This document shows positions 1,884 through 64,000 of a stretch of 64,000 nucleotides of DNA, piece after piece. Position 1 is the first letter of the stretch; each line of letters begins with the position of its first letter. Origin of the DNA: Pseudomonadota bacterium. GTDB taxonomy: Bacteria > Pseudomonadota > Gammaproteobacteria > Acidiferrobacterales > Sulfurifustaceae. The stretch is taken from assembly GCA_040755435.1 (NCBI GenBank), contig JBFMBB010000002.1, positions 8,415 through 72,414 on the forward strand. Direction: 5' to 3'. The position numbers and the translations under genes are program-made. The notes beneath the pieces are model-generated. The model saw nothing but the letters and a program-made list of their open reading frames with translations. It was not told the origin of the DNA and made no database searches.

Positions 1884-1972
1884 TGGCGGAGAGGGAGGGA
1901 TTCGAACCCCCGTGGCGTTTCCGCCCATCTGATTTCGAGTCAGCGCCGTTGTGACCGCTTCGGTACCTCTCC
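1884..1972 (-). tRNA. tRNA-Ser(CGA)
   Basis: The reverse complement reads GGAGAGGT...CTGA-CTCGAAA-TCAG...long variable arm...GGTTCGAATCC...CTCTCCGCCA. A TATAAT -10 box lies at 1984-1989. Confidence 0.93.
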
Positions 1973-31068: not shown

Positions 31069-32796
31069 TCATCCCATCTGCTCGGGAATGACGTCGGCAA
31101 ACACCAGTAGCTCGAAAACATTCGTATATTCCAGCCGCTGCAACAGGCGCACGGTGCGCGCATTTTCTGATTCTTCCGCCAGCAATAAATTACTGCCGGG
31201 CGCGTAAACGCCGCGCGGCAGCAGCAGGGTCGCCGGGCGCTTGAGCGCCTCGATGGCCGGCAGCAGCAGCGCCGGCTGGTAGTCCGGCTCCTTGATGCCG
31301 CGCGCCAAGGCGACCGCCACCGGCTTCACGCCCGAGGCCAGCAACTCGACGCCCATCTCGAGGCTGCTGGCCTCGGGGCTTTTCATCCAGCGCACCACGC
31401 CCACGTTCCAGCGGCCGATTTCATCCAGCTGCTGGATGCCGATCGCGTCGCCGACGCGCACGTAAGTATGCGAGCTGCCGAAGCGCACCAGCTGCAAACC
31501 TTTCGGTGCGGTGTCCTTGATCTGCCAGCGATCCACACGGAAGGCCTCTCCTGACGCTACTGGAGTTTCTTTGGATTCGCGTCGCGGCATCGGGCCCACC
31601 ACCGGCTGGTCGAGCGCGATGAAGTCCTCGTCGGCTTTGGCCTCGCTGGCAATATCCTCTTCAATGTGGGACGGCAACGTAATGCGATCGTCTGATGTTT
31701 CTTTATGCGCCGTCACCGGTGAAACAAAAGCCTTCTGGCCGCCGGCGAAGAAATGCATGGCGGGAATGCCGGCGCACACGAAGGCCGGCCCGCTGCGCCG
31801 CAGGCGCGAATATTGCCGCCGCGGCGACTGGCCCCAGGCGCGCATCATGCGCAGCAGCATGTCGAGGCAGACGGAATCCAGGCCTTCGAACCCGAGCGAC
31901 AGCGTGCGCGCGCTGTCGCCCTTTTGCAGGCGCTGGATGAAAAACTGGATCGAACCCAGCAGCTCCAGCGCGTCCAGCACGCGCAGCCCCTGACCCGGCT
32001 GCAACGCGACGGCGCGCGCGTACGGCACCGGCGGCGCATCGGTCGCGGGATCGATGAGAAAATATCCGGGCGCCGGCGTGGCGTCGAGATTGTCGCGCAA
32101 CAGCGCCTTGCCGCCCCATTGATGCAGGAAGCGCTGCACCTGCCGGCATTCGTTCTGCGGCAGCTGGTAGGGATTGCTCAAACCCAGCAGCAGGATGCGA
32201 ATGTATTCCTGGTTGATCGTGGTTTTGGCAACCATGGGCGCAGGCGTGTCGAGCACCTCCTGCGCCAGATCATGCTCAGCGGCATACCGATAGATCGCAT
32301 GCAGTTCGCGCCACACCTCCGGCGGATACGGCATGTACACCTGGTAGGAATGCAGCAGTACCTCGCCGAGATAATGCAGGGCGCGCAGCAGCGCCTGCGC
32401 CCGCAGGGTTTTCCGGCCCCAGCGCAGCCGCTGTTTTTCCAGGTCCTGCAGGCAACCCTTGTAGCCGTAGGCCATTTCCATGTGCAGCTGGCGGATGAAC
32501 TCTGCCAGCTGGCGTTTCTTCGGCGTCAGCGGCAGCGCAGCGCGGGTGAAATAGGATTCCAGCGCCGCCGTGACCGAGGCCACCGGCGAGTTGTACAGCT
32601 CCATCAGCTCGAAGCGGCGCGCGGCGTCCAGCTCCTGGCGATTGAGGGTATAAAGCGCCTGGTAGATTTCGCGCGCGGTCTCGGCGCTGTCGGCGAGCGG
32701 CAGCGAAGCCAGCCACGCTTGCGCGTACTTGGGATCGGTTTCGGCCATCCAGGCCGAAACGCGCTTCACGGGCATTGAAAGGGCGAGTCCGGTCAC
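31069..32796 (-). CDS. Conserved hypothetical protein with a PilZ-like C-terminal region
   Basis: Helical N-terminus; RQYSR (RxxxR) and WQIKDTAPKG (D-x-S/A-x-x-G-like); VGVVRW beta-barrel signature. Confidence 0.6.
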   Translation of the reverse strand: MTGLALSMPVKRVSAWMAETDPKYAQAWLASLPLADSAETAREIYQALYTLNRQELDAARRFELMELYNSPVASVTAALESYFTRAALPLTPKKRQLAEFIRQLHMEMAYGYKGCLQDLEKQRLRWGRKTLRAQALLRALHYLGEVLLHSYQVYMPYPPEVWRELHAIYRYAAEHDLAQEVLDTPAPMVAKTTINQEYIRILLLGLSNPYQLPQNECRQVQRFLHQWGGKALLRDNLDATPAPGYFLIDPATDAPPVPYARAVALQPGQGLRVLDALELLGSIQFFIQRLQKGDSARTLSLGFEGLDSVCLDMLLRMMRAWGQSPRRQYSRLRRSGPAFVCAGIPAMHFFAGGQKAFVSPVTAHKETSDDRITLPSHIEEDIASEAKADEDFIALDQPVVGPMPRRESKETPVASGEAFRVDRWQIKDTAPKGLQLVRFGSSHTYVRVGDAIGIQQLDEIGRWNVGVVRWMKSPEASSLEMGVELLASGVKPVAVALARGIKEPDYQPALLLPAIEALKRPATLLLPRGVYAPGSNLLLAEESENARTVRLLQRLEYTNVFELLVFADVIPEQMG

Positions 32797-33017: not shown

Positions 33018-33341
33018 ATGACGTACGTGGTCACGGAAAACTGCATCCGCTGCAAATACACGGATTGCGTGGAAGTCTGCCCGGTGGATTGCTTTCATGA
33101 GGGCCCGAATTTCCTGGTCATCGACCCCGATGAATGCATCGACTGCACCCTGTGCGTACCGGAATGCCCGGTGAACGCCATTTTCGCCGAAGACGACCTG
33201 CCGGATGAGCACAAGCAATACACCGCCCTCAACGCCGAGCTGGCCAAGAAATGGCCGGTGCTGACCGAGAAAAAACCCGCGCCCGCGGACGCCGCCGAGT
33301 GGGAAAACAAGCCCGACAAACTCAAGTACCTTGAGCGCTGA
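33018..33341 (+). CDS. fdxA: 7Fe ferredoxin (FdI type)
   Basis: [26 protein letters not shown] ... [12 protein letters not shown]. Confidence 0.95.
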
Positions 33342-36243
33342 CGCACCGGTCATACTGGTCCCCTACGGAGACGATCCGCTACGCCATCTCGCCACGCTGC
33401 TGCTGGAACGGCATGAAGACCGTCTCCCCGACTTAAGCCGTCAGACTGTCCTGCTGCCGCACGCGAGTGCGGTGCCGCGCTTCCGCCGGCTGCTGCGAGC
33501 GCAGGCGGAACAAAAAGGTTTTCCTGCCCTGCTCCCGCCCATCACCGGCACGCTGACTTCCTGGGCCGCGCGATTCGCCGGCGACGATCAACACCACCTG
33601 AGCTCCACCGCGCGCCAGATCCTGCTGCTCGATCTGCTGCATGATTATCCGCGCTGGCTGCGCCAGTACGGCGACTGGCCGCTGGTCGACAGCCTGCTGG
33701 CGCTGTTCGACGAGCTGGCGCTGCACGCAGGCCGGCTTTCCGGCGACGCCGATTCGATCCGGCATGTCCTCGCAGGCCACGGCGCGAACACGGACGAGAT
33801 TTCGCCCTTCAGCGACGAGGCGCAGCTGGTGCAGGAACTGTGGGACGCGTGGCGCGAACGTCTCACGAAAAATAATCTCCAGGATCCCGTGCGGCGTCAC
33901 ACGGACGGCCTGGCGCGCAGTCTCGAACGGCTGCCGGCCGGCACGAATATCTATCTCGCCGGTTTCGCGGATTTTCCGGATGCGGAGATCGCCTGGATCA
34001 GGGCGCTGATGGCGCGCGGCGGTCTGACCCTGTTGCTGCATGGTTCAGCCGATAACGTCGTGGAAAATCCGGTGACGCGTCTGTTGAGCGCCTTGACGAT
34101 CAAACCGCATTTCATCGCATCCGCCGATGCCTATGCGGATTTTCTCGATCGTGTCTTTGCCACGGACGCGGGTCATTTGCATGAGCGCGCGCAACAACAG
34201 GCAAAAGCGGCGCCGGCCAGCCCCGCGCGCGGGCGCCTGACGCTGCACCAGGCCGCCGACGCCGAATCCGAGGCGCGCGCCATCGATCTGCAGGTGCGGC
34301 GCTGGCTTACCCAGGACCGGCACGACATCGGCATCGTCACTAACGACCGCAAGCTGGCGCGGCGCGTGCGCGCCCTGCTGGAACGCGCGAACGTCGGCCT
34401 GGTGGATGCCGGCGGCTGGGCGCTCTCGACCACCAGCGCGGCCACGTCACTGGCGCGCTGGCTCGAGTGCGTGGAGCAGAATTTCTCCCACGCGCCCCTG
34501 CTCGATCTGCTGAAGTCGCCGTTCCTGCAACCCGGTATCGGCCGCACCCAACTCGACCGCCTGGTACCGGTGTTCGAGCGCGACGTCGTACGGGCCGGAA
34601 ACATTACTTCCGGGCTGGAGCATTATCACCACGGGCTCGAACGCGCGGTTGCGGATTCGGGCGACGGGACAGGCGAAACCTGGCCGGCGCTGACACAACT
34701 GCTGGAACGGCTGGCGGACGCCGCCGCGCCGCTGCTGCCCCTGCTGTCGGCGCGCCCCCGGCCAGCGCTGGAATTTCTTGCCGCCCTGCAAACCAGCCTG
34801 GAAAAACTGGGTTTGGCGGCCGGATTCGAAAACGACGATGCCGGCCGGGAATTGCTGCAGGTGCTGGACGAAATGCGTGCCGCCTCCGCGCACAACCCCC
34901 TGCGCCTGGCGTGGGCGGGCTTTCACCAGTGGCTGCGGCGCGGCATGGAACAGCGGCGCTTCCACCCGCCCATGCAGGGCAGCGGCGTGGAGCTGATGAG
35001 CTTCTCGGAATCGCGGCTGTACCGCTTCGACGCGCTCATCATCGCCGGCGCCGTGCGCGAGCATCTGCCGGGACAGATCTGCGCGCCGCCGTATTTCAAC
35101 GACGGCGCGCGCAGCGAGCTGGGATTGCCCTCGCTGGCGCGGCGCTATGCCGTGCTGTTCCAGGATTTCCGCCGCCTGCTCGAGGCCGCGCCGCGGGTCA
35201 TGGTCAGCCTGCGCCGTGAACAGGATGGCGAACGACTGGCGCCGAGCCCATGGGTGGAACGGATACGCGCGTTTCATGCCCTCGCCTACGATGAGTCCCT
35301 GGGCGATCCCGAACTGGAATGGCTGGTGCAACAGCCCGCTGCCGTTATCGCGCAACGCTCTGCACCGCTGCCGGCACCGGTTACGCCACCGGCCGCGCAT
35401 CTGCCGCCCGCCATGCTGCCGGCGATGTTCACGGCCACGGACTGCCAGCGTCTCCTGGACTGTCCCTATCAGTTCTTCGCCGCGCGCGGCCTTGGCCTGG
35501 CGCCGGAAGACGAGGTGCGCGAGGAAATCGAAAAAGTGGACTACGGCATCCATGTGCATCGCATTCTGCAGGCGTTTCACACCGGCGTGCCAGGCCTGCC
35601 CGGCCCGTGGCGGGAACAACTCGATCACGCCACGCGCGCGGAAGCGGAGGCGCTGTTGCGCGAGATTTCGGAACGGGTGTTCGCGCGCGATCTGCGCCGG
35701 CGCTTCCTGGCACGCGGCTGGCGATACCGCTGGGAACAATGCATCCCGGCCTACCTGGATTGGGAAATGCAGCGCGCCGCCGACTGGAAGGTCGAGGCAA
35801 CCGAACTCAAGCGGGAGCGCGTCTACCGTAAAGGCGCGACGCAAATAGCCCTGACGGGACGCATCGACCGTCTCGATCACGGACGCGACGGTTATGCCAT
35901 CATCGATTACAAGACCGGCACGGTGCCGGCGCGCGATCCAGTCGAGCGTGGCGAAAAAATCCAGCTCCCGTTTTACGCCCTGCTGCTGGAACAGGGTAAT
36001 GTCGCGAGCGCGGCGTTTCTGGCGCTGGACGACGAAGAGGCAAAGGAGAAAACGGCGCTCGAGGGCGAAGCGCTGGACATGCTGCGCGACGCGATCCGCG
36101 CACGACTGCTGCAGATCAAGCGCGGTCTCGACACCGGCGCGCCGCTGCCGGCCTGGGGCGACATGGAAACCTGCCGCCTGTGCGACATGGAAGGACTGTG
36201 CCGCCGGGAGATGTGGGCTGAACCGGATACAAAAACGTCATGA
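33331..36243 (+). CDS. addB: AddB-like PD-(D/E)XK nuclease subunit with Fe-S staple
   Basis: CPYQF ... GRIDRLD ... IIDYKTG ... [10 protein letters not shown]. Confidence 0.85.
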
Positions 36244-36250
36244 ATCGACC

Positions 36251-36396
36251 AAAAAAAAGAGGCGGCCGTTCATGGCCGCCTCCGGTATTTCCACTGATCA
36301 CTTGCTTCCGGAATGCATCCTTGCATCCCTTGAAACTTCCCTGCTTACGTCCGATGTCGTCAGCTTCGATATGTCCCTATCGGGCTTCCTTTCCTC
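36251..36396 (-). ncRNA. Candidate CsrB/RsmZ-like CsrA-sequestering sRNA
   Basis: Ten GGA motifs in about 125 nt, several in hairpin loops; TTGCAT-16-TATAGT promoter (36429-36402); 9-bp terminator stem plus U8. Confidence 0.72.
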
Positions 36397-36491
36397 TTCA
36401 AACTATAGGTGTCACCACTGAAGATGCAAGCCGCTCATCCCGGCCCGGGGCCTGAAAAAATGTCATTTCCATACATGGACTTAGACTTTCA

Positions 36492-39400
36492 TTGCCGGAC
36501 ATTCCAAGGGCGGATAAAGCCGTGCTGGACATAGCGCGCGCCACCGCCCCGGAGAATAACGTCGTGGTCCAGGCCGCCGCCGGGACCGGCAAGACCTGGC
36601 TGCTGACCAGTCGCATCGTCCGCCTGCTGCTCCAGGGGACGGAGCCCGGCGCCATCCTGGCCATCACCTTCACCCGCAAGGCCGCCGGCGAGATTCACGA
36701 ACGTGTCACCGAGCGCCTGCTGGCATTGGCCGCCGCCGACGAAGATGGACTGACGGCGCAGCTCACCGCGATCGGCGCCGCTACCGACACCGCCACCCGC
36801 GCGGCGGCGCGCGGACTCTACGAGAAACATCTGGGCGCCATCCATCCGCTGCGCACGACAACGTTCCATGCCTTCTGCCAGGAAATCCTGCGACGCTTCC
36901 CGCTCGAGGCCGAGGTGCCGCCGGGATTCGAGCTGGTCGAATCCACCGCCGAACTGGAACAGGTTGCCTGGCTCGCGCTCGACCGGAAGGCCGCGCGCAA
37001 CAGCGACGGCGCGCTGGCGACGGCGCTGGACACGCTGTTGCGCGAGTGCGGCGGTGTTCATGGCACGCGCACGACGCTGGACGATTTTCTGTCGCATCGC
37101 AGCGACTGGTGGGCCTACACCGAGGACGAAGCGGACCCGGTGGAATTCGCCGTCGCACTGCTCGCGCAGATGCTGGGTGTGGCGGACGACACCGATGCAC
37201 TTGCCGCGTTTTTGCGCGATCCGGAAATCCGCCAACATATCGTGCGTTACGCCGAACTGCTGTGCGGCCATGCCACGGCGACGAACCAGAAATATGCCGC
37301 GGAACTGGCACGGGCGCTGGCGGACAAGGAAGCTTCGTCGCGAAGCTTTGAATGGATTCGCGGTGTGCTGCTGACCGATGCGGATGAACCGCGGAAACTG
37401 AAACGCTCCGACACTCTGGAGAAGAAACTCGGAACCGGACGCGTTGATGAGCTCATCAAGCTGCACCAGGAAATCGCCTCGCGCGTGCTGGCGGCGATGG
37501 CCGCACACAAGCGTCAATGGACATATCGCGTCTCGCGCGCCTGGTACGTCTGTGGCACGACGCTGCTCGCGGAATTCCAGCGGCTCAAGCTGGAGCGCGG
37601 CGTGCTCGATTTCGCCGACCTGGAATGGAAAACCTGTCGTCTGCTGAACCGCAGCCGTCACGCCGAGTGGGTGCAATACAAGCTGGACCAGCGCATCGAC
37701 CATCTGCTGGTGGACGAATTCCAGGACACCAACCCGACCCAGTGGCGGCTGTTGCTGCCGCTGTTGCAGGAGATCGTGGCCGGCGATCCGGAACGCCGGC
37801 GCAGCGTGTTTCTCGTCGGTGACGAGAAACAGTCGGTGTACCGATTCCGCCGCGCCGACCCGCGCCTGTTTCATGCCGCGCGCCACTGGCTGGAACAGCA
37901 CGCGCAGGCACAGACGTTGACTCAGCACCTGTCGCGGCGCTCCTCGCCCGCCGTGATCCGCTTCGTCAACCTGATATTTCACCGCCCGAGCGACACGACA
38001 GCGGAAGCCGAAGATGATGACTATCCGCTGCAGGACTTCCAGCTGCACGACACGCATCATCATCAGCTCTGGGGCCGGGCCGAGCTGTTGCCGCTGGTAC
38101 GCCGCGCCGACAGGAACGCGGGAAAAACCGCCGTGGCCATGCGAAATCCGCTGGAACAGCCGCGCCTGACGGCCGAGGACCAGCGGCACCGCCAGGAAGG
38201 CGAGCTGATCGCCGGCAAAATCCGGGAAATCATGGGCCAACCGATCGCCGACGGAGAACGGGTACGGCCCCTGACCGGCGACGACATCATGATCCTGCTG
38301 CGTGACCGCACCCACGCGCGCTCCTACGAGGAGGCCCTGCGGCGCGCCGGCATACCTTATATAGGAACCGGCCGCGGGGCCTTCATGCAGTCGCTGGAAG
38401 TGCGCGACCTCATGCATCTGTTGCGCCAGCTGGTCGAGCCCTATAACAACCTGGCGCTGGCTTCGGCGCTGCGTTCGCCGCTGTTCGCCGCCGGTGAAAC
38501 TGACCTGCTGCGCCTGGCGCAGAGTCCGCCAGGTTCATGGCGCGAACGCCTCGAACGATTGGCGGATCCTGCGCCGGAAGGCGCGCTGGCACGCGCGCGG
38601 GAGCTGCTGCCGCGCTGGAGCAGTCTTGTCGGCCGCCTGCCGGTGCACGACCTGCTCGATCGCATCTACGGCGAGGGCAACGTGGTGGCGCGCTACCTGG
38701 CCGCAGCGGTGCCGCATCTGCGGCCGCGCGTGGAGGCCAATCTCAACCGCTTCCTCGAACTGGCGCTGGAGGTCGACAGCGGACGCTATCCTAGCCTGTC
38801 GCATTTTCTCGCTTACCTGGAAAGACAGGCGAAGCACGACGACAAGTCGCCGGCGGAGCCGGCCTGGAACCGCGCGCCGCGCGTGCGCGTCATGACCATC
38901 CACGCCGCCAAGGGCCTGGAGGCGCCGGTGGTGTTCCTCGCCGACGCCGCGCGCGCCACCGACAACCGCGACCGCGGCCTGCGTCCGCTGGTTGACTGGC
39001 CGGCGCAGGCTCCACGGCCGCGGTATTTCCATCTCGGCGGTGCCGGCAGAAAAATCGACGACGTCAGCCTGGCGCTGCGCACCGAACAACAGTGGCCGGC
39101 GCGGCGCGAAGAGGCCAATCTTTTATACGTCGCGCTCACGCGCGCGCGCCAGATGCTCTACGTCTCGGGTTGCGAACCCGGAAAAGACGGTCGCGGCTGG
39201 TACGGCTTCATCGAGAAACGTCTGCGCCACGCCGGCGTTTCCGGCGAGGCGGCGCGCGCCGGCCTCGAACTCGACAGCATTTCCCTGGACGACGACGCTA
39301 GCGTGTTCAATACCCGCGCCTGGCTGGAATTCGGCGCGCCGCCGCCGTTACCGCCGCTGCAACCGCCGGCACCCGCCGCCGCCTTCAGCCTCGATGCGCG

Positions 39401-39995
39401 CCTGACGCAACCGCTGCCCGCGATGCCGCAAACCGGAATGGTCAACCCAAGCCGCTCATCGCACGTGGAAGACGATTATCCTGGCGAGACCGCCGGTTTT
39501 ACACCGGCACGCACGGAGAGACAGCGCCGGGGCGAGGTGATTCATCGCATGCTGGAACGGCTGGCTGGCGGCGAGGGACGTGCGGCGGTCGAAAAAATGA
39601 TATGGCAGGAATTCGGCGAGTGGCTGGAGGAAAAACATTTCAGCCAGTGGTGGCGCGAGGCCTGTGCCGTGGTGGATCACGAGGATTTCCGCGGGTTTTT
39701 CGACCCCGCCCGCTACCAGGAGGCGCGCAACGAAATGCCGATTCTCTATCAGGAAGGCGGGCGTGACGTCTACGGCGTCATCGACCGGCTCGTGATTCGC
39801 GAGCAGGAAATCGTTCTCATCGACTACAAGACCCATGCGCGCGCCAGCCGGGAAAACGTCGCGCAGCTGGCGGAGGATTTCCGGGAACAGATGCGCCAGT
39901 ACGGCGAAGGCGCGCGGCGGCTGTGGCCGGGTAAAAAATTGAGGCTGGTATTGCTGTTCACCGCCTGCGGCGGCGCGGTGGAACTGACACCGTGA
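36492..39995 (+). CDS. addA: AddA-like UvrD helicase/nuclease subunit
   Basis: AAAGTGKT, DEFQDT, GDEKQSVYRFR, MTIHAAKGLE, LYVALTRAR and C-terminal GVIDRL...IDYKT. The exact start is uncertain. Confidence 0.88.
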   Translation: MPDIPRADKAVLDIARATAPENNVVVQAAAGTGKTWLLTSRIVRLLLQGTEPGAILAITFTRKAAGEIHERVTERLLALAAADEDGLTAQLTAIGAATDTATRAAARGLYEKHLGAIHPLRTTTFHAFCQEILRRFPLEAEVPPGFELVESTAELEQVAWLALDRKAARNSDGALATALDTLLRECGGVHGTRTTLDDFLSHRSDWWAYTEDEADPVEFAVALLAQMLGVADDTDALAAFLRDPEIRQHIVRYAELLCGHATATNQKYAAELARALADKEASSRSFEWIRGVLLTDADEPRKLKRSDTLEKKLGTGRVDELIKLHQEIASRVLAAMAAHKRQWTYRVSRAWYVCGTTLLAEFQRLKLERGVLDFADLEWKTCRLLNRSRHAEWVQYKLDQRIDHLLVDEFQDTNPTQWRLLLPLLQEIVAGDPERRRSVFLVGDEKQSVYRFRRADPRLFHAARHWLEQHAQAQTLTQHLSRRSSPAVIRFVNLIFHRPSDTTAEAEDDDYPLQDFQLHDTHHHQLWGRAELLPLVRRADRNAGKTAVAMRNPLEQPRLTAEDQRHRQEGELIAGKIREIMGQPIADGERVRPLTGDDIMILLRDRTHARSYEEALRRAGIPYIGTGRGAFMQSLEVRDLMHLLRQLVEPYNNLALASALRSPLFAAGETDLLRLAQSPPGSWRERLERLADPAPEGALARARELLPRWSSLVGRLPVHDLLDRIYGEGNVVARYLAAAVPHLRPRVEANLNRFLELALEVDSGRYPSLSHFLAYLERQAKHDDKSPAEPAWNRAPRVRVMTIHAAKGLEAPVVFLADAARATDNRDRGLRPLVDWPAQAPRPRYFHLGGAGRKIDDVSLALRTEQQWPARREEANLLYVALTRARQMLYVSGCEPGKDGRGWYGFIEKRLRHAGVSGEAARAGLELDSISLDDDASVFNTRAWLEFGAPPPLPPLQPPAPAAAFSLDARLTQPLPAMPQTGMVNPSRSSHVEDDYPGETAGFTPARTERQRRGEVIHRMLERLAGGEGRAAVEKMIWQEFGEWLEEKHFSQWWREACAVVDHEDFRGFFDPARYQEARNEMPILYQEGGRDVYGVIDRLVIREQEIVLIDYKTHARASRENVAQLAEDFREQMRQYGEGARRLWPGKKLRLVLLFTACGGAVELTP

Positions 39996-40102
39996 TTTAT
40001 GATTTCTGATTCCTGGTTTCTAGTTTCTGATTTCCAGAATTCAGGAGTTGGCGATTTGGACACCCTGAAAATCAGAAATCAGGAATTAGAAATCGGAAAT
40101 TA
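39993..40102. repeat. Palindromic heptamer array (GATTTCT)n ... (AGAAATC)n, copy 2
   Basis: Six left units at 39994-40035 and five inverted units at 40067-40101. Confidence 0.85.
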
Positions 40103-41185
40103 CCCTTGTTGGGCCTGAATCACGCGGTTGCGCCCCGCTTCCTTGGCCTGGTAAAGCGCGGCGTCCACCTGCTTGAACAGCCACACGGCCGGATCGGGCC
40201 CGTAGGAATCCACGCCTGGCTGGAGACAGGCCATGCCGATGCTGACAGTGACATCGAGATCGATTCCTTCGGGAATCACGAAAGCGCTGTGCTCGACGCG
40301 CGAGCGCAGGCGCTCGGCGATGGCCGCGCCCTGGACGGGCGTGGTGCCCGGCAACAACAGCACGAACTCCTCGCCGCCATAACGCGCCAGCACGTCGCTG
40401 CCGCGCAGGTCCTGGCCGAGCAGGCTGGCGATCTGGCGCAGCACGCGGTCGCCGACCTGGTGGCCGTACTGGTCGTTTACCTGCTTGAAAAAATCCACGT
40501 CCACCAGCATGCACACCAGCGGCCCGGCCTGGCGCGCCCAGCGCTCCACCTCCTCCGCCAGGCGGCGCTCGAAGAAGCGCCGGTTGGAAATCCCGGTCAG
40601 GGGATCGGTAAGGCCATCGAGTTTCAGTCGTTCGTGATTGATGGAGTTGTCGATGCACATGGCCGCCACCGCCGCCAGGTGTTCGAGCAGATCCGTGGCG
40701 ATGCCCGGAATGAAATGACGCGGATCGCGGCTGCCCTGGTTGAGGCTGCCGATGAGTTCGCCGCGTCGGACCAGCGGCGCGATCGCCACCGAACCCGAGG
40801 CGCAGGGATGGCCGGAGAACAACAGCGCATGCAGGCGCTCATCGACCGGCCCGAGGCGTGGACGCCAAGGCCTGGTAAAGAGCCCGTCCAGCGTGTCGCG
40901 AGGAATGGCGACGAAACTGTGCGCCCCGGAATCCGGCTCGCTACCGGCTTCGATCAGCCGCGTCATCTCGTATTCGGGATCGGCGCAGGCGACCGTAACG
41001 CAGTCGATGCCGGGAAAGGTTTCAGGGATGCCGCGGGTGATGACGTCGATCAGGTCGGGAAGCGAGGGAGAGCCGATCATGCGCACTTCGATCTGGCGAA
41101 AGCCGGACCAGATGCGCTCGTTATCGCGCAGTTGCTTGCTGAGCCTGAGCCATTCCCGTTCCTGCGTCGTGATTCCCTGGTCCAT
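40100..41185 (-). CDS. Diguanylate cyclase with a DUF484/GAF-like N-domain
   Basis: DPLTGISNRR, DVDFFKQVND, RGSD (I-site) and RYGGEEF. Confidence 0.9.
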   Translation of the reverse strand: MDQGITTQEREWLRLSKQLRDNERIWSGFRQIEVRMIGSPSLPDLIDVITRGIPETFPGIDCVTVACADPEYEMTRLIEAGSEPDSGAHSFVAIPRDTLDGLFTRPWRPRLGPVDERLHALLFSGHPCASGSVAIAPLVRRGELIGSLNQGSRDPRHFIPGIATDLLEHLAAVAAMCIDNSINHERLKLDGLTDPLTGISNRRFFERRLAEEVERWARQAGPLVCMLVDVDFFKQVNDQYGHQVGDRVLRQIASLLGQDLRGSDVLARYGGEEFVLLLPGTTPVQGAAIAERLRSRVEHSAFVIPEGIDLDVTVSIGMACLQPGVDSYGPDPAVWLFKQVDAALYQAKEAGRNRVIQAQQG

Positions 41186-44669: not shown

Positions 44670-47177
44670 ATGCTCAACGCCGTTAATTCATCCGCCTCCC
44701 CCACCCAGAAACCCACAATCTCGATACGGATCCTGAAAAGCCTGGGGCTGGACAGTTTCCGCGGCCGTATGCTGTACATCGCGGCGCTTTCCATCGGCTT
44801 CATGGTGATCACTTCGTGGATGGCGGAAACACGTGTCCGCGAAGTCACGCGCCAGGGGATTTCCAATGCCATCGACCAGCAGGAAATCCTGCGCGTGCTG
44901 CGTGACGTCTCCGGCGACATCCGGCTGGCGGAATCCAGCCTGCACCATCTCCCCGAATCAAGCCTGTCACGCGGCGCCACCGTCCAGAAGCACCTGAAGA
45001 ACGCGCTTGCGAAAACCGGTCTTCTGGCGGAGGTGGCGAAAAGACAGCGCTTGCCGGAACTGCAGCAGAAAACACAGGAGTTCATCTCCGGTCTTCACCG
45101 GTTGCATCAGGAGGTGATGGCCACGACTACCAGCGGGCCCTTGACCGCGTTGCACGCGCACGCTGAACCTAATCTCGAAAAAGTCCGGGACGCGACGTTG
45201 GCGCTGGAAAAATCGCTGGGCGCCCGCAGCATCGAGGATATGCACCGGCTGTCGCAGGCCGTCGAGCGCCAGTTGCGCCTGCTCTGGGTCGCAGCGCTGG
45301 TGGGCATCATCGCCATCGTCGCATGGCTGCTCCTGTTCGAATACTCCATCCGCCAGCCGGTGGCGCGCATTACCGGCGCCCTCAAGGCCGAGGCGGAAGG
45401 TTCCCGCCAAGTCACGGTAGCGTCGACGTGGACCGAGGAGACGGGTAATCTCGTTTCCGCCTTCGATCACATGCGGCGGCAGGTGCACGCGCGCCAGCAG
45501 CGCCTGGAAACCATCCTGGACAATGCCGCCGAGGGCATCATCACCTTCGACGCCGACGGCCACATCGAGAGTTTCAACAAGGCGGCCGAAAAACTGTTCG
45601 GCTACGCCCAGGAGGAGGTGCTCGGAAAGGACCTGCGGCTCATCCTGCCGCCACAGACGCGCGAGAGCCGCGAGGATTACCTGAAGCATTTCATCCGCAC
45701 GGAAATACGGCGCCTGATCGGCCATGAGGGCGAGGTCACCGGGCGCCACAAGGACGGCACCACCTTCCCGATGGCACTCAAGATCAGCGCCATGGTGCTG
45801 GACGGAAAACAGTTGTACACCGGGCTGGTGGCGGACATCAGCGAACGCAAGGCCATGGTGGAGAACCTCAAGAACATGGCCGAGCACGACGGGCTCACCG
45901 GTCTTTACAACCGCAGCTATTTCCAGCAGGAACTGGAGCGCGTCGTGGAGCGCGTCAGGCGCGCCGGCGGTATCTGCTGTTCCCTGCTCTATATCGACCT
46001 GGACAATTTCAAATACATCAACGACACGCTGGGGCATGCCGCCGGCGACCGGCTGATCATCGAGGTCTCCGCCATCCTGAACAAGCGCGCGCGCAAAAGC
46101 GACCTCATCGCCCGTATCGGCGGCGATGAGTTCACCGTGCTGCTGTTCGACACCACGCCCATGCTGTCGGTGCAGGTGGCCGAGTCCTTCCGCGCCAGGC
46201 TGGCCGACTACCTCTTCAAGCACGGCGGCGAGCAGATCGACATCGGCTGCTCCATCGGCGTGGCCGCAATCAATCCCGGCACGGCCTCGGCCGCCGAGGT
46301 CCTGTCGCAGGCCGATCTCGCCTGCCACCTGGCCAAGCGCGGCGGCCGCAACCGCGTGCACCTGTACAATACCGAGGATGCCGAGAGCGCCGCCGCCATG
46401 GCCATCGACATGGGCTGGTCGCGCCGCATCAAGGAAGCCATCGAAAAGGATCGCTTCGTGCTGGCGTGCCAGCCCATCATCAATACCGCCACGCGCGAAA
46501 TCGAATCCTACGAGGTGCTGATACGCATGCTCGACGAGCGTGACGAACTGATCATGCCCTCGGGATTCCTGGCCACCGCCGATCGTTTCGGGCTGGCAGC
46601 GGAAATCGACAAATGGGTCATTCGCCACGCCATCGAAGGCTTGGCCCGCCAGCGTGTCGCCGCTCCCCGCCTGCGCTATGCCATCAACCTGTCAGGCCGC
46701 ACCCTGACCACGCCCGGCATCTGCGAGTTGATCCAGGACATGCTCAAGGACACCGGCCTGGACCCGTCCGCCCTGACCTTCGAAGTGACGGAAACCGTGG
46801 CCATCGCCGACATGGTGGCGGCCGATCTTTTCCTGTCGCGCCTGCGTTCCATGGGTTGCCAAACCGCCCTGGACGACTTCGGTTCGGGCATGGCCTCGTT
46901 CGCCTATCTCAAGGATCTGCCGGTCAACAGCGTCAAGATCGACGGGCGTTTCGTGAAGAATCTCGCGACCAGTCCGGTGGACCAGGCGATGGTCAAGGCC
47001 ATGAACGAAATCGCCCACGCGCTCGGCAAGCAGACCATCGCCGAGTTCGTGGAAAACGAGGAGAGCCTCAGACTGCTCGCCGCCTATGGCGTGGACTTCG
47101 CCCAGGGCTACCACCTTGGAAGACCGGACGTGACGCTGCCCTGCTCCACCCTCACCAAGGGACGCTGCGCCTCCTGA
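44670..47177 (+). CDS. Membrane HAMP-PAS-GGDEF-EAL protein
   Basis: Two TMs, HAMP, PAS (NKAAEKLFGY), RKSD...GGDEF, YEVLIR and DDFGSG. Confidence 0.93.
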   Translation: MLNAVNSSASPTQKPTISIRILKSLGLDSFRGRMLYIAALSIGFMVITSWMAETRVREVTRQGISNAIDQQEILRVLRDVSGDIRLAESSLHHLPESSLSRGATVQKHLKNALAKTGLLAEVAKRQRLPELQQKTQEFISGLHRLHQEVMATTTSGPLTALHAHAEPNLEKVRDATLALEKSLGARSIEDMHRLSQAVERQLRLLWVAALVGIIAIVAWLLLFEYSIRQPVARITGALKAEAEGSRQVTVASTWTEETGNLVSAFDHMRRQVHARQQRLETILDNAAEGIITFDADGHIESFNKAAEKLFGYAQEEVLGKDLRLILPPQTRESREDYLKHFIRTEIRRLIGHEGEVTGRHKDGTTFPMALKISAMVLDGKQLYTGLVADISERKAMVENLKNMAEHDGLTGLYNRSYFQQELERVVERVRRAGGICCSLLYIDLDNFKYINDTLGHAAGDRLIIEVSAILNKRARKSDLIARIGGDEFTVLLFDTTPMLSVQVAESFRARLADYLFKHGGEQIDIGCSIGVAAINPGTASAAEVLSQADLACHLAKRGGRNRVHLYNTEDAESAAAMAIDMGWSRRIKEAIEKDRFVLACQPIINTATREIESYEVLIRMLDERDELIMPSGFLATADRFGLAAEIDKWVIRHAIEGLARQRVAAPRLRYAINLSGRTLTTPGICELIQDMLKDTGLDPSALTFEVTETVAIADMVAADLFLSRLRSMGCQTALDDFGSGMASFAYLKDLPVNSVKIDGRFVKNLATSPVDQAMVKAMNEIAHALGKQTIAEFVENEESLRLLAAYGVDFAQGYHLGRPDVTLPCSTLTKGRCAS

Positions 47178-49559: not shown

Positions 49560-49916
49560 ATGCGAATCGTCGGTTGGTTTAAAACTGCGGTTCTGTGCCT
49601 GGCACTGCCGGTGCTGCTTTCCGCCTGTGGCGGCGGCGCAGAAAGCCCCCCATCCGCGAATTCCCTGCCAAACGCCGCCATCCTGACGTGGGATGCCGTC
49701 GCCGCCACCAATCTCTCGGGCTATCGTGTTTATTACGGCACGTCGCCGGGAAGCTACCAGCAGGCCCCCGGGCAAGGATTGAGCGTCGGTAATATCACCG
49801 CCTATACGCTCACGGGGCTGAGCAACGGCACCAGATACTATTTCGCCGTGACCGCCTTCGACACGGCGGGCAATGAAAGCGGTTACTCGAACGAAGTTTT
49901 CAAGGACATTCCCTGA
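49560..49916 (+). CDS. Small FnIII-domain lipoprotein
   Basis: Lipobox LSAC; LTW...GYRVYYG...GL.NGTRYYFAVTAFD..GNES. Confidence 0.85.
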   Translation: MRIVGWFKTAVLCLALPVLLSACGGGAESPPSANSLPNAAILTWDAVAATNLSGYRVYYGTSPGSYQQAPGQGLSVGNITAYTLTGLSNGTRYYFAVTAFDTAGNESGYSNEVFKDIP

Positions 49917-49917
49917 C
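49677..49917 (+). repeat. 241-bp exact direct repeat, copy 1 (FnIII cassette including stop codon)
   Basis: Base-by-base identical to 52772-53012. Confidence 0.95.
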
Positions 49918-50073
49918 TTAAAGAAGCGCCATCGGCGACGGCAGGAAACTCCCCGAGATATTCATGGCTGCCGCCCCACGCTCACTGTATCGATCTCCCC
50001 GGAAAAGATAGACTGGAAACCCCGGCCCGGCGCAGCGCAACAAGGCGCGGTCATTTGCACGGATTTTCATTTC

Positions 50074-51474
50074 ATGAAGTCTCCCCATCTGGCCGTACGC
50101 GCAAAAATATTCTCCCTGCTTTTTCTCGGCCTCTTCGTTTCCGTTGTGCTGTCTCCCGCCCGGGTCAATGCGGCGCCGGATTACCCCCTGAAACTGAGTT
50201 CCAGTGGACAATATCTCGTGGATCAGGCCAATCGGCCTTTTTTCATGAATGGCGACACGGCGTGGTCGCTGATTTCCCAGCTCTCCCGGGCGGAGGCGGA
50301 CATCTATTTGTCTGACCGCGCAAAGAAGGGATTCAATCTTGTCCTCGTAAATCTGATTGAGCACAAATTCTCCGACAACGCCCCGGCCAATCACGCCGGT
50401 CACGCTCCGTTTGCCGGCGCCGGCAACTTCAACGCCCCCACCGAGGAATATTTCGCCCACGCCGATTGGGTCATCAGGAAGGCCGCGGAAAAAGGCATCG
50501 TTGTCCTGCTGGCCCCGATTTATCTGGGATACGACTGTGGCGATCAAGGCTGGTGCGCCGCTGTAAAATCGAGCTCCCCGGCCACCATGCGCAATTACGG
50601 CCGGTATGTGGGCAAGCGCTACAGGAACTTCCCGAATATCATCTGGCTCATCGGCGGCGATGCCAATCCGGTGGCCCACGGCGTGGCGGCAAAACTGCGT
50701 GAATTCGTTGCCGGTTTGCGGGAAGCCGACACCGTCCATCTGATAACCGCGCATAACGCGCGCAATCTGGCGGCCATGGATATATGGACCACGGATTCAT
50801 GGCTGGATATCAACAACATCTACACGTCGGGCAACGAGCACCAGGCTGCGTTGACGCAGTACCACCGGTCCGGCGCCAAACCGTTCTTTCTCCTTGAAAG
50901 CAACTACGAGAATCAGCCCGGCATTACCCAGCTCAATTTGCGGCAACAGGCCTACTGGTCCGTGTTATCCGGCGGCACCGTGGGACACATATTCGGAAAT
51001 TGTCCCATGTGGCATTTCGACGCGCCTTCCGCGTCGAGCTTTTGCTCCGGCTCCACCTGGAAATCGCAACTCGACTCCACCGGATCGACCACGCTGGCGC
51101 ATGTGGGCCGGCTGTTTCGCTCGCGGGCCTTTCATCTGCTCGTGCCCGATCGGACGCACTCCGTGCTGACTGCCGGCTTTCAGTCCGGCGCAAGCCAGGC
51201 AGCGGCGGCCCGGGCAAGCGACGGGTCGACGATCATCGCCTACATTCCCACGAGTCGCGCCGTCACCATTGACCTCGCGAAAATCGCCGGTGCTTCTGTG
51301 CGCGCCTGGTGGTTCAACCCGCGCACGGCGGCGGCAACGCTGATCAGCACCTATCCCGCCCGGGGCACAATGGCCTTCACGCCGCCCGGTTCCGGCGACT
51401 GGGTGCTTGTGCTGGACAATGCCGCGCTGCAACTGCCTGCTCCCGGGAAAAGATCGCGGGTCCCGGCCTCCTGA
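50074..51474 (+). CDS. Secreted DUF4038 (apiosidase-like glycoside hydrolase) plus collagen_bind_2-like domain protein
   Basis: Signal peptide, PFFMNGDTAW, NIIWLIGGD, KPFFLLESNYE, WWFNPR and DWVLVL; start at ATG 50074. Confidence 0.75.
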   Translation: MKSPHLAVRAKIFSLLFLGLFVSVVLSPARVNAAPDYPLKLSSSGQYLVDQANRPFFMNGDTAWSLISQLSRAEADIYLSDRAKKGFNLVLVNLIEHKFSDNAPANHAGHAPFAGAGNFNAPTEEYFAHADWVIRKAAEKGIVVLLAPIYLGYDCGDQGWCAAVKSSSPATMRNYGRYVGKRYRNFPNIIWLIGGDANPVAHGVAAKLREFVAGLREADTVHLITAHNARNLAAMDIWTTDSWLDINNIYTSGNEHQAALTQYHRSGAKPFFLLESNYENQPGITQLNLRQQAYWSVLSGGTVGHIFGNCPMWHFDAPSASSFCSGSTWKSQLDSTGSTTLAHVGRLFRSRAFHLLVPDRTHSVLTAGFQSGASQAAAARASDGSTIIAYIPTSRAVTIDLAKIAGASVRAWWFNPRTAAATLISTYPARGTMAFTPPGSGDWVLVLDNAALQLPAPGKRSRVPAS

Positions 51475-53012: not shown

Positions 53013-53175
53013 ACGGTGCCAACAACCGGAGCAAGAAATGTCTTCTACTCTGCCGGTAAACTACAATATTATTACGCCCATGTATCCGGTTGACCGCGAC
53101 AAACACGGCTTTTCCGACACTAAAATCCAGCGCACTGCCCGGCCAGGGCATGCAACAGAAACCCGAGGTTCATAT

Positions 53176-54648
53176 ATGACAATCAAAGCTTCATTTTGGC
53201 GACTGCCCGTCATCCAGGGGCTCATCATGGCGGTTGCCATCATGACGGGACAGGCCTTGATCGCCTCACCGGCCTGGGCCGCGACGTACTATGTCGCAAC
53301 CAACGGCAGCAACACCAGCGCGGGAAGCTCCGCGGCTCCGTTTCAGACCATCCAGAAAGGCCTCTCGGTACTTTCGGCGGGCGACACCCTGGTGATCCGT
53401 AACGGCACCTACAGCGGCTCTTCGAACAGCCTGGCGAATCTCCCGAGCGGCTCCGCCGGGAATTACATTACGATCATGGCCGAAAACGAAGGCAGCGTCA
53501 TCATCACCGGCGGGCTGGGAATGTCCAACTCAAACCAGTATCTGATCTTTCAGGGCCTTCGCCTTCAGGATACCGGCCAAAAAAGCATCCTCGGGAATCA
53601 TATCAAGTGGTTCAGGACTGAATTCAAGGGCGGGCCATCTGGCGGCAACACCATGGCGGTGGTGGTGGGAACGAACGATGTCGGCACGACGGCCGATATC
53701 CTGCTGGAGGATGTCTGGGTGCACGGATTCGGCGGCCGCTACAAGATTCTCGTATACAACTCGACGCGGGTGGTCATTCGCCGGGCCGTCACAAGATACG
53801 ACGGCACCGTCACGGCGATAGGTGAACCGCAAGCCAATATTACCGTTTACGATTCTGACAGCGTGGAAGTCCAGAATTCCATCGCCATTGACGGTATTAC
53901 CGGCGCGGGCGCGGAGGAGTTTGTCGCGGCCTTTTACAACATCTGCAACGGCACCGGTTCTGTGCCGGTGAGGAATTACACTCATCGCGGCAACATCGCG
54001 ATTAACCCGACGCGCTTTACCATGGGGTCCGAGGGACAATGCACCATTACCAATCAGGTGATTACGGATATTGCTGGCGCGGGAGGCACTTATGGTATTT
54101 CCCAGCTCAAAGGCAGCGGTACCCAGTACACCCGCATAACGCTCATCGGATCCAAGGGTGATGGTTTTGGCATCTTCGGCGGCAGCGCCAAGGTTCAGGA
54201 TTCAATCGTGGCGAATCAGTCCGGCCAGGCGTACAACGGGGTAACCCCGCTAACTTCGGTTGCCTACAACAACAGCGGGGGGAATTCGGGTGGGATCGTG
54301 CTGAACCCGTTTACCAGCGGCCTGCTTTATCTGCCGAGAATCGAGGCCGCATCCGTGCTTGCTGCCGGCGGAACCGCGGGTCAGCGCGGCGCCCAGATCG
54401 TCAAACGCATTGGCACGCCCGGAACTCTTTACGGGGAATCGGGTTATTCGACCACGACCGCCACGGATCTCTGGCCATGGCCCAATGAGGCCCGGATCAA
54501 GAAGGAAATGTGCACCGATGCGGGTGTCACGCGGGGTTTCTGCTCGTCCGCCTCGCTGACGGCCTATGTCTTCGGCTATCTCGGCAATCCGAATCCCTAT
54601 GGCAGCGTGATATCGCTCTCGCCGCCGGGCAACCTGCGGGTGCAATAA
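53176..54648 (+). CDS. Secreted right-handed beta-helix (pectin-lyase-like) protein
   Basis: Signal peptide ending AWA, YYVATNGSN..G...PFQTIQKG....GDTLVIRNGTY, and Gly/Asn-rich beta-helix turns; start at ATG 53176. Confidence 0.75.
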   Translation: MTIKASFWRLPVIQGLIMAVAIMTGQALIASPAWAATYYVATNGSNTSAGSSAAPFQTIQKGLSVLSAGDTLVIRNGTYSGSSNSLANLPSGSAGNYITIMAENEGSVIITGGLGMSNSNQYLIFQGLRLQDTGQKSILGNHIKWFRTEFKGGPSGGNTMAVVVGTNDVGTTADILLEDVWVHGFGGRYKILVYNSTRVVIRRAVTRYDGTVTAIGEPQANITVYDSDSVEVQNSIAIDGITGAGAEEFVAAFYNICNGTGSVPVRNYTHRGNIAINPTRFTMGSEGQCTITNQVITDIAGAGGTYGISQLKGSGTQYTRITLIGSKGDGFGIFGGSAKVQDSIVANQSGQAYNGVTPLTSVAYNNSGGNSGGIVLNPFTSGLLYLPRIEAASVLAAGGTAGQRGAQIVKRIGTPGTLYGESGYSTTTATDLWPWPNEARIKKEMCTDAGVTRGFCSSASLTAYVFGYLGNPNPYGSVISLSPPGNLRVQ

Positions 54649-54735: not shown

Positions 54736-55956
54736 TCAGCCGGGCTCATGCCGAGGCCCAAGACCGAGGATTTTTTCAACGGTCCGGATCCACGAATGCT
54801 CTTCCAATAGCAGGGTTTTCGCGGCTGCGGCAATCCGCTCGCGCAATGGCGCGTTGCCAAACAGGGACAGCACGCACTCGCTACACTCCCCGACGTTGAG
54901 AGGTTCGAACAAAAGCGCCGTTTGACCGTGCCGGTGCACGTCCTCGATGGGCGGCAGGCGCGGCAGCACCAGCGGGATTCCCAGCCCCATCATCTCGAAC
55001 ATGATCATGGGCGATCCGAACATGTTGGAGTTCGGAAGCACGCCTACATCCAGCATGCTGAGATAATCGTACACTTCCGCGCGGGCGACGGCGCCCGTAA
55101 ATATGACCTTGTCCGCAATCCCCAGCTCGGCGGCGCGGGCCGCGGCGGCGACACGACCGCGCCCGTCGCCTATCAGACACAACCGGAAATCGGGACTGAC
55201 CTTGAGAATCCTCGCCATGACCTCCACCAGGTTGGACAGGCGATCCCAGTCGTCGAACCAGCCGGCGAATCCCAGCACGAACGCCCCGTCGAGGCCGAAT
55301 CGCCGCCGCAGCTCGTCGCGACGGGGAACGGCCGGGATCCGCTTCATGTCGAAGCCGTTGGGGACGATAACCAGCTGAGCGGGCGAGGCGCCCGCGGCGC
55401 GCGCCCGTTGCGCCAGGTAGGACGAGACGGCATGGATCCGGGAGCAGCGGCGGAACAGCAGTCTCTCGAATGCATTGCACAGGCGCAGGAATGACTGCTT
55501 CCTCGCGCGCTCGGGGACTCCGGAGACTTCGTTGACTTCCAACACGAACGGCACGGCGTGCCTCGCGGCGGCAAGTGCGCCGGCGACAAGAAAAAATGCA
55601 TAGCGCTCGTAGACCAGATCGTAGCGCTCCGCACGCAACGCCCGGGACAACCTCAAATAGGCGGGAATGTTGTACACGATCTCGGCGATCTCAAACAGCC
55701 AGTTGGGGAAGTGCCGACTGACGAACCGCCACACCCGGCCGATCCCCCGCACCTTCGTGCTGGCCTTGTCCACCGGCGCCGTATCCTTCGAGAACGGATC
55801 AACGCCGCCGGGAGAGATCACCCTGACCTGGTGGCCCAGCTTGCGCAGCGCACTCACCACGCTGACGATGTGGTTGCCCTCGGCGCCTCTTCCCTGGGTG
55901 CGATGATGGTAGAGAATCTGCAGCGGCCGGTCCGGCAGCCTGAAATTTGCGCCCAC
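54736..55956 (-). CDS. GT4 family glycosyltransferase
   Basis: VPNGFD, FAGWF and catalytic-type FGSPMIMFEMMGLG; probable GTG start at 55956. Confidence 0.85.
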   Translation of the reverse strand: MGANFRLPDRPLQILYHHRTQGRGAEGNHIVSVVSALRKLGHQVRVISPGGVDPFSKDTAPVDKASTKVRGIGRVWRFVSRHFPNWLFEIAEIVYNIPAYLRLSRALRAERYDLVYERYAFFLVAGALAAARHAVPFVLEVNEVSGVPERARKQSFLRLCNAFERLLFRRCSRIHAVSSYLAQRARAAGASPAQLVIVPNGFDMKRIPAVPRRDELRRRFGLDGAFVLGFAGWFDDWDRLSNLVEVMARILKVSPDFRLCLIGDGRGRVAAAARAAELGIADKVIFTGAVARAEVYDYLSMLDVGVLPNSNMFGSPMIMFEMMGLGIPLVLPRLPPIEDVHRHGQTALLFEPLNVGECSECVLSLFGNAPLRERIAAAAKTLLLEEHSWIRTVEKILGLGPRHEPG

Positions 55957-55997
55957 AGTCGTGTTTTCCGTTCGCGTTGTTTTTGACCGCCCGATTT

Positions 55998-57119: not shown

Positions 57120-57129
57120 GTCCGCCCTC

Positions 57130-58278: not shown

Positions 58279-58324
58279 GGGATTGCCCCGGGACGGATCG
58301 CGGGCGGCGCGGCGGCGTGCGCAG

Positions 58325-60789: not shown

Positions 60790-60792
60790 GGT

Positions 60793-62664: not shown

Positions 62665-62666
62665 GC

Positions 62667-63824: not shown

Positions 63825-64000
63825 CGTCTCCCAAGGCGCCGGGCTCAAGCCCGCGCGCGCGCCATTCGTTCAGCAGCGCCGGCAGCGCCTCACGAATGGC
63901 ATCGTTATCGTCATGACAGAGAAAGATGTCGCCGCCCTGAACCTGCCGGCCCCTCGACAGGATCGCCGCCACGGAACGTGTCCTGTCGTCGTCCGAATCC
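63802..64000 (-). CDS. C-terminal end of a NodB-type polysaccharide deacetylase (partial)
   Basis: Manual translation DSDDDRTRSVAAILSRGRQVQGGDIFLCHDDNDAIREALPALLNEWRARGL...; GDIxLxHD motif; stop at 63802-63804. Confidence 0.7.
   Translation of the reverse strand, partial: DSDDDRTRSVAAILSRGRQVQGGDIFLCHDDNDAIREALPALLNEWRARGLEPGALGDDDGAKGK

Follow-up and report, generated by a model that had tools for sequence, protein, structure and literature searches.

The sponge RNAs of the Csr/Rsm systems control a global post-transcriptional switch that governs biofilm formation, motility, carbon storage and secondary metabolism. Their sequences change so quickly that homology tools miss them outside the model genera. 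In the RsmX/RsmY RNAs of Pseudomonas and the RsmY/RsmZ RNAs of Legionella, the centre of the activator site lies about 70 nt ahead of the start. The Acidiferrobacterales, the Thiohalomonadales and their allies, which are abundant in soils, sediments and groundwater, are poorly studied. Kulkarni et al. (2006; PMC1488887) listed five criteria for CsrA-regulating sRNAs: an intergenic position, a high concentration of AGGA/ARGGA motifs, a Rho-independent terminator, GGA motifs repeatedly placed in loops or free regions, and a conserved upstream site of the GacA/UvrY type. In the same paper, rsmZ of P. aeruginosa is flanked by fdxA and rpoS, with the arrows '-> <- <-'. Our literature search found no paper on an Rsm or Csr RNA in these lineages or adjoining addA/addB, and none that connects Sulfuricaulis or Acidiferrobacter to CsrA, or rsmZ to addA/addB.

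The stretch of DNA analysed here, referred to as the window, is 64 kb long. It is a core chromosomal stretch carrying mltF, guaAB, xseA, der, bamB, hisS, ispG, rlmN, hscA/isc, suhB, fdxA, addBA, ppsA and EPS genes. Its minus strand at 36251-36395, between addB and addA, probably encodes a Csr/Rsm sponge sRNA that would titrate CsrA/RsmA, a reading drawn from sequence analysis and its comparison with relatives. The features of the locus, in order of position, are listed below.

33018..33341, plus strand: fdxA, encoding a 7Fe ferredoxin (Pfam Fer4 and DUF3470); overlaps the addB start
33331..36243, plus strand: addB, alpha-type (NCBIfam addB_alphas, E = 3.5e-64); convergent with the sRNA
36251..36395, minus strand: predicted sRNA transcript of about 145 nt with 10 GGA; 5' end predicted at 36395-36398
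36251..36283, minus strand: Rho-independent terminator, GGAGGCGGCC-AUGAAC-GGCCGCCUC(U) followed by U8, from the terminator scan
36310..36329, minus strand: central hairpin, GGGAUGCA-AGGA-UGCAUUCC, predicted by both the MFE and the centroid fold; every subfamily has it as its consensus hairpin
36333..36346, minus strand: weak hairpin AAGC-AGGGAA-GUUU, 4 bp including a G-U pair, read from the sequence
36367..36382, minus strand: hairpin CGAUA-GGGACA-UAUCG, 5 bp, read from the sequence
36402..36407, minus strand: putative -10 hexamer TATAGT; TATAGT/TATATT is conserved in relatives
36424..36429, minus strand: putative -35 hexamer TTGCAT; TTGCAT/TTGCAA and the 16-nt spacer are conserved in relatives
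36460..36476, no strand assigned: upstream dyad ATGTAT-GGAAA-TGACAT, read from the sequence, its centre about -73 from the predicted start
36523..39995, plus strand: addA, alpha-type (NCBIfam addA_alphas, E = 3.7e-185); divergent from the sRNA promoter

The sequence-only reading of this locus had described a minus-strand unit made up of a promoter TTGCAT-16-TATAGT, a body of about 145 nt with 10 GGA motifs, three hairpins, and a 9-bp stem followed by U8, and each of these elements was recovered. The two hexamers are found at 36429-36424 and 36407-36402, the count of 10 GGA is reproduced for 36395-36251, and the three hairpins are present at 36367-36382, 36333-36346 and 36310-36329. The terminator scan gives a stem of 10 pairs (8 of them GC) at 36283-36258, followed by T8, and only on the minus strand is the stem followed by a U-run. 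TTGCAT-16-TATAGT was missed by the promoter scan, because TTGCAT matches TTGACA at only 3/6 positions; relatives keep both hexamers and the 16-nt spacing on the minus strand. The size of the addB-addA gap, given earlier as 248 bp, stands if addA starts at TTG 36492, from which the longest ORF runs, and becomes 279 bp if the start is GTG 36523, which agrees with the N-termini of relatives and appears the more likely of the two. With either start the sRNA is intergenic, lying beyond the addB stop at 36243 and overlapping neither coding sequence.

Among the closest described counterparts is RsmZ/PrrB of Pseudomonas. In size, the Rfam model of 133 nt compares with about 145 nt for the window sRNA, and both consist of short GGA hairpins and single-stranded GGA motifs, then a Rho-independent terminator. 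The window sRNA is also convergent to fdxA, as is rsmZ in P. aeruginosa. The arrangement differs in that addB stands between fdxA and the sRNA, which puts fdxA 2.9 kb away, in that no rpoS is among the annotated window genes, and in that the sRNA sits inside the addB-addA gene pair. The position of fdxA upstream of addB is shared by the relatives L001 (fdxA at 501-926), L002 (651-995), L004 (263-643), L006 (614-934) and L012, and the order fdxA-addB-addA is kept even in L006, a relative without the sRNA.

At the gathering score, Rfam returned no sRNA match in the whole 64-kb window. In E-value mode, the only meaningful match was to PrrB_RsmZ (RF00166), which scored 26.6 bits where the gathering score is 44 (E = 4e-4; 701 nt searched), spanning model positions 1-133 and window positions 36252-36383. 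Relatives gave sub-threshold matches in the same gap and on the same strand, to RsmZ in L001 (24.7 bits), L014 (24.0), L051 (25.4), L025 (20.6), L030 (20.2) and L084 (18.5), and to CsrB in L046 (31.0), L059 (34.4) and L062 (16.2). The RsmZ and CsrB models belong to one clan, CL00106. In other words, the likeness to the Rfam CsrB/Rsm models that the first reading anticipated is real in so far as the matches are confined to the CsrB/RsmZ clan, and it fails at the level of the individual families, since all the matches fall below the gathering score.

With CsrB/CsrC of the Enterobacteria and the Vibrio CsrB-type RNAs (RF00018), the window RNA has in common the multiple A(R)GGA motifs, which here would titrate CsrA, and the CsrB model is the best sub-threshold match of the diverged gap relatives L046, L059 and L062; the window RNA itself is far shorter, with about 10 sites as against about 18-22 in 350-420 nt, and it has neither a CsrB match nor a UvrY box. 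The RsmX/RsmY RNAs of Pseudomonas and the RsmY/RsmZ RNAs of Legionella resemble it as small (about 110-130 nt) multi-GGA RNAs with an intrinsic terminator, and their activator site at about -70 may be compared with the window dyad near -73; no Rfam match to them was reported, in a search that suppressed overlapping lower matches of the same clan. Of the properties given by Kulkarni et al. (PMC1488887), the window sRNA shows the intergenic position, the AGGA/ARGGA density, the terminator and a predicted structure with GGA in loops; an upstream site of the 18-bp TGTAAG-N6-CTTACA class was not found in the window. Because the RsmZ threshold is not passed and this canonical box is absent upstream, two points on which it differs from RsmZ/PrrB, we place the RNA outside RF00166 and treat it as a new family within the known Csr/Rsm kind, perhaps related to RsmZ. 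The linkage to fdxA, together with RsmZ as the best Rfam match, suggests that the window sRNA and RsmZ may be of common descent.

The density of GGA motifs sets the locus apart from the rest of the window. No other place in the 64 kb, on either strand, has ten GGA in 145 nt: all 145-nt segments average 2.44 GGA (sd 1.58), and the 0.025% that reach 10 all lie at 36232-36470 on the minus strand. The pattern A.GGA is observed 5 times in the sRNA body against 0.44 expected, and 6 of the 10 GGA of the 145-nt body are in AGGA/ARGGA. The GGA richness of the locus exceeds chance. Across the subfamilies, five GGA motifs are kept in register while adjacent columns vary. At 319 GGA sites from 49 family sequences, C occupies position -3 in 45%, A position -2 in 65% and R position -1 in 67%, and on the 3' side W occupies +1 in 69% and G occupies +2 in 59%. 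The resulting context, CA(R)GGA(W)G, corresponds to the central part of RUACARGGAUGU, the SELEX consensus for CsrA, a string found in PMC4347634. The motifs are also predicted to be accessible: in 34 of the sRNAs, the mean unpaired probability is 0.59 for GGA and 0.45 for other bases (Wilcoxon p = 4e-7), where the members, here as in the other family statistics, are phylogenetically non-independent. A crude test of GGA enclosure, with a stem of at least 3-4 bp and a loop of at most 9 nt, did not discriminate, giving 65% and 39% for the family and 69% and 37% for the genomic background.

The minimum free energy of the sRNA is -50.5 kcal/mol, compared with -37.0 +/- 3.7 for dinucleotide shuffles (z = -3.6), and this low value owes much to the terminator and the central hairpin. 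The best GGA site lies in the loop of a strong predicted hairpin, the central AGGA tetraloop being found in both the MFE and the centroid structures. The AUGCAAGGAUGC of this hairpin matches the CsrA SELEX consensus at 10/12 positions, and the two mismatches in AUGCA-AGGA-UGCAU are an exchange of A-U for G-C within the stem. In the window, 5 of the 10 GGA can be placed in hairpin loops; the central hairpin is the only robust one that carries a GGA, and it alone among the GGA hairpins is both robust and covarying, the other stems being weak or not conserved. The CGAUA-GGGACA-UAUCG stem occurs only in the closest relatives (the window, L001, L013, L014 and L016), and L002, L003 and L012 retain AGGGA at the counterpart of 36367-36382 and lack the stem. 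The CAGGGAAGU of the 36333-36346 hairpin is invariant in the close subfamily, and its stem is absent from the MFE structure. Apart from the central hairpin and the terminator, the stems are weak and lineage-specific, as is usual for the Csr/Rsm sponge class.

Covariation among the addB-addA relatives, which had been proposed as a check, was found for the central hairpin and the terminator. For these two elements taken together, 97.4% of the cells are paired and double changes occur at 4 pairs; the covariation score is 0.304, compared with 0.215 for shuffles, and none of 500 shuffles reaches 0.304. When the pairing is slid, the score is at most 0.164. The terminator stem GGCGGCC/GGCCGCC is kept family-wide, with a compensatory change from AU to GC at its base.

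The closest relatives, judged by the C-terminus of AddB, are MAGs labelled 'Candidatus Muproteobacteria', Sulfuricaulis, Acidiferrobacterales, Sulfurifustaceae, Thiohalomonas and Chromatiales. The element is present on the minus strand of the addB-addA gap in dozens of metagenomic and MAG relatives, with the labels Acidiferrobacterales, Thiohalomonadales and Chromatiales. All relatives whose AddB identity is at least 57% carry it immediately behind the addB stop, again on the minus strand. Iterative nhmmer joined 55 loci (39 unique sequences), a Thiohalomonas denitrificans MAG among them, into one family with constant position and orientation. The description of the sRNA as lineage-specific needs qualifying: it is not narrowly so, the family spanning several orders of sulfur-oxidising Gammaproteobacteria. 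The element is retained at orthologous addB-addA gaps, with the GGA motifs kept and the flanks diverging. Nucleotide identity to relatives is 82-97% for the sRNA and 72-84% for the flanking coding sequences; the conserved stretch runs from the -35 box to the U-tract, the sequence outside it is unalignable, and the subfamilies are separated by indels that are not multiples of three.

At greater distance, where AddB is 42-52% identical, many gaps are unalignable and are GGA-rich on the minus strand only, the GGA counts of the two strands being, for example, 1 vs 12, 2 vs 17 and 3 vs 19; these gaps carry a single minus-strand terminator. Other relatives have no gap, and in them addA begins at the addB stop, with the Walker A motif 45-69 nt beyond. 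The element is therefore an insertion into, or has been lost from, an otherwise tight addB-addA pair. No sibling copies of the sRNA were found in the window or the fetched loci. From all these comparisons, we consider it very likely that the locus is a real, conserved, stand-alone sRNA gene under purifying selection. Among the fetched loci, the addB-sRNA-addA contigs L096, L099, L101 and L108 come from MAGs labelled Methylomirabilis, Bacteroidota, Nitrospira and Burkholderiales, and they are probably mis-binned. The public run X37 ('organism A') was considered as an isolate of the source organism and set aside, as it shows mixed-sample behaviour, with contigs about 10% different.

The sRNA sequence also occurs in RNA-labelled public runs. 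In X30, a true RNA-seq library, one contig has its end at 36396, 6 nt beyond the -10 hexamer and within the range predicted for the start (36395-36398). For the L025 homolog, contigs of X45 and X46 end at 1256 and 1276, compared with a predicted start at 1269; they extend 100-120 nt past the terminator and span the 3' end of addB together with the element. The Logan contigs are unstranded and of depth 2-50, some of them covering the promoter and flanks or passing the terminator, and their coverage partly mirrors sequence conservation. Because the contigs are unstranded, those from the RNA libraries lend weak support to expression of the sRNA. The metatranscriptome contigs were rejected as decisive proof of a discrete transcript, as in the 'METATRANSCRIPTOMIC WGS' runs the depth is similar over the promoter and addA. 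In X29, a Logan contig has the Illumina adapter AGATCGGAAGAGCACACGTCT joined directly after 36402, inside the -10 box; this end was discarded as an RNA end, being an untrimmed-adapter artefact.

Upstream of the promoter, the sequence-only reading had seen no canonical GacA/UvrY box TGTAAG-N6-CTTACA, and we agree: in the 330 nt upstream, the best match is 7/12, which is the background mode. The window dyad TGTAT-N5-TGACA is 3 bp shorter than the GacA box. Relatives in the subfamily keep an AT-rich block (ATGTAw...AATGAAAAT) on the upstream side of the -35 box, at a distance of 46-47 nt. The dyad at -73 and this AT-rich block may be a putative activator site or part of a divergent addA promoter. 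Distant homologous members, in contrast, carry TGTAGG-N6-CCTACA-like boxes that match the GacA box at 9-10 of 12 positions. The box TGTAGGAATTTTCTGAAA, GacA-like with a 9/12 match, recurs in L050, L052 and L053; L107 and L129 show it too, and L042, L051, L046, L062 and L072 carry versions that differ from it by one to three bases. The upstream box of L145, TGTAGGAGGATTCCTACA, is a perfect palindrome with a 10/12 match. One subfamily has a TAAG-N6-CTTAT box. The GacA-like boxes of the distant homologous members argue that the ancestral family was controlled by a GacA-type regulator, and that in the lineage of the window the site has since drifted or given way to another. In the distant members that keep such a box, the activator is probably a response regulator of the GacA/UvrY type. 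In L028 (about 1790-1870) and L029 (about 2560-2640), on the minus strand, a G/C-rich palindromic REP-like insert (…CCCTCCGCCTTGAAGGGGGAGGG…) lies between the conserved upstream AT-rich block and the sRNA promoter, and it shifts the TAAG-N6-CTTAT box to -150 and -270.

In the sponge model that we prefer, a sigma-70-type promoter would drive a terminated RNA of about 145 nt that presents about ten GGA motifs, about half of them in the sequence context that CsrA prefers, CA(R)GGA(W)G. One GGA would be displayed in the loop of the stable covarying hairpin and the others in weak hairpins or single-stranded stretches, so that several CsrA/RsmA dimers could be bound at once and titrated off mRNA leaders, and CsrA-dependent translational repression would be relieved. 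We infer that CsrA binds, and with it the effect on regulation and the nature of the activator. The assignment to the Csr/Rsm sponges, already made in the sequence-only reading, gains support from the clan-level Rfam similarity, the fold, the conserved synteny, and the context and accessibility of the GGA motifs. In tblastn searches with E. coli CsrA, P. aeruginosa RsmA and UvrY (hand-written query sequences), no match to csrA or gacA/uvrY appeared in the window or in any of the 173 fetched loci. Because csrA is not in the window or these loci, the CsrA partner is assumed to be present, as it is in Gammaproteobacteria generally. In other Gammaproteobacteria, csrA often precedes tRNA-Ser; in the window, the tRNA-Ser(CGA) at 1884-1972 (minus strand), which is the only tRNA and the only Rfam match at the gathering score, has no adjoining csrA.

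The most radical alternative to the sponge model would be that the gap holds no RNA gene, only the addB terminator and the addA promoter region, or a small protein encoded by the plus-strand ORF 36240-36455 (71 aa). We regard this as very improbable. The plus-strand frames are indeed open, as few stop codons arise in the complement of a purine-rich sequence, and the upstream AT-rich block could belong to an addA promoter; nevertheless, only the minus strand has the U-run, it is there too that the -35 and -10 boxes and the distance between them are conserved, and nucleotide conservation in the gap exceeds that of the coding flanks. Close relatives, moreover, differ from the window by a 1-nt change in the length of the U-tract next to unrelated flanks. 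The coding reading of the ORF was rejected on account of the frame-breaking indels between subfamilies, and a spacer is unneeded, since addA directly follows addB in relatives without the element. A different proposal accepts minus-strand transcription and makes it a cis-acting device of the addB-addA operon, the GGA richness being secondary. Transcription of the minus strand would collide with read-through from addB, or the sRNA would pair with the complementary intercistronic addBA mRNA, and either would set the AddB:AddA ratio or shut off addA. That addB and addA abut in relatives without the element is what an operon would lead one to expect. The plus-strand hairpin has no U-run, so addB transcripts may read through it, and the X45 and X46 contigs span the 3' end of addB and the element. 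What this proposal leaves unexplained is the preservation of the GGA motifs and their CsrA-like context amid divergence elsewhere, as well as the similarity to the RsmZ/CsrB clan, and the sRNA overlaps neither coding sequence; we think it unlikely as the main function. A cis-acting role is compatible with the sponge model and does not exclude it.

The RNA could also act in trans and yet work without CsrA, by pairing of GGA/AGGA with UCC-rich targets, by Shine-Dalgarno mimicry, or as a sponge for another RNA-binding protein. Such a function is in keeping with the outcome of the csrA searches in the window and the loci, with the lack of a GacA box in the window, and with the sub-threshold Rfam scores. 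We nevertheless hold it to be improbable, in view of a repeated motif that is the CsrA consensus and goes beyond GGA alone, of a multi-site architecture with terminator and of clan-restricted Rfam matches in diverged relatives that both fit Csr/Rsm sponges, and of the GacA-like boxes in homologous family members. If the sponge model is retained, I may speculate further that the sRNA is an ancient fdxA-linked RsmZ orthologue that became embedded antisense in the addB-addA operon, where sponge transcription and addBA read-through would be antagonistic. The antagonism could arise from convergent-transcription interference between the two, or the sRNA could pair with the intercistronic mRNA, to which it is perfectly complementary and which would then serve as an 'anti-sponge'. 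This extension is a doubtful one; if true, it would couple DNA-repair capacity to Csr/Rsm global regulation.

Should the RNA be a sponge, the Csr/Rsm system would be extended to the Acidiferrobacterales, the Thiohalomonadales and allied sulfur-oxidising Gammaproteobacteria. The family sequences would provide, as they stand, the seed alignment from which a new Rfam family could be built, and the constant position between addB and addA offers a simple synteny marker for further members. The location also raises the question of possible cross-talk between a repair operon and Csr regulation, and the linkage to fdxA hints that RsmZ-type genes predate the Pseudomonas lineage.

Some further genes of the window should be mentioned. 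Cyclic-di-GMP and EPS genes are classic Csr/Rsm targets, and within 4-27 kb of the sRNA are genes for a DUF484-GGDEF protein (40100-41185, minus strand) and a PAS-GGDEF-EAL protein (44670-47177, plus strand), as well as a PEP-CTERM/XrtA-type exopolysaccharide cluster with glycosyltransferases and an amidotransferase (54736-63848, minus strand). Three long ORFs with gene-like GC3 of 0.71-0.80, at 31069-32796 (minus strand, between suhB and fdxA), 49873-51474 (plus strand) and 53038-54648 (plus strand), had no NCBIfam match, and 31069-32796, the only one of them scanned against Pfam, had no match there. Finally, the minus-strand gene at 10243-12390 encodes a Ser/Thr protein kinase of 715 aa with a PknB-like N-terminal kinase domain, and it is flanked by an M23 peptidase gene and der, amid housekeeping genes.
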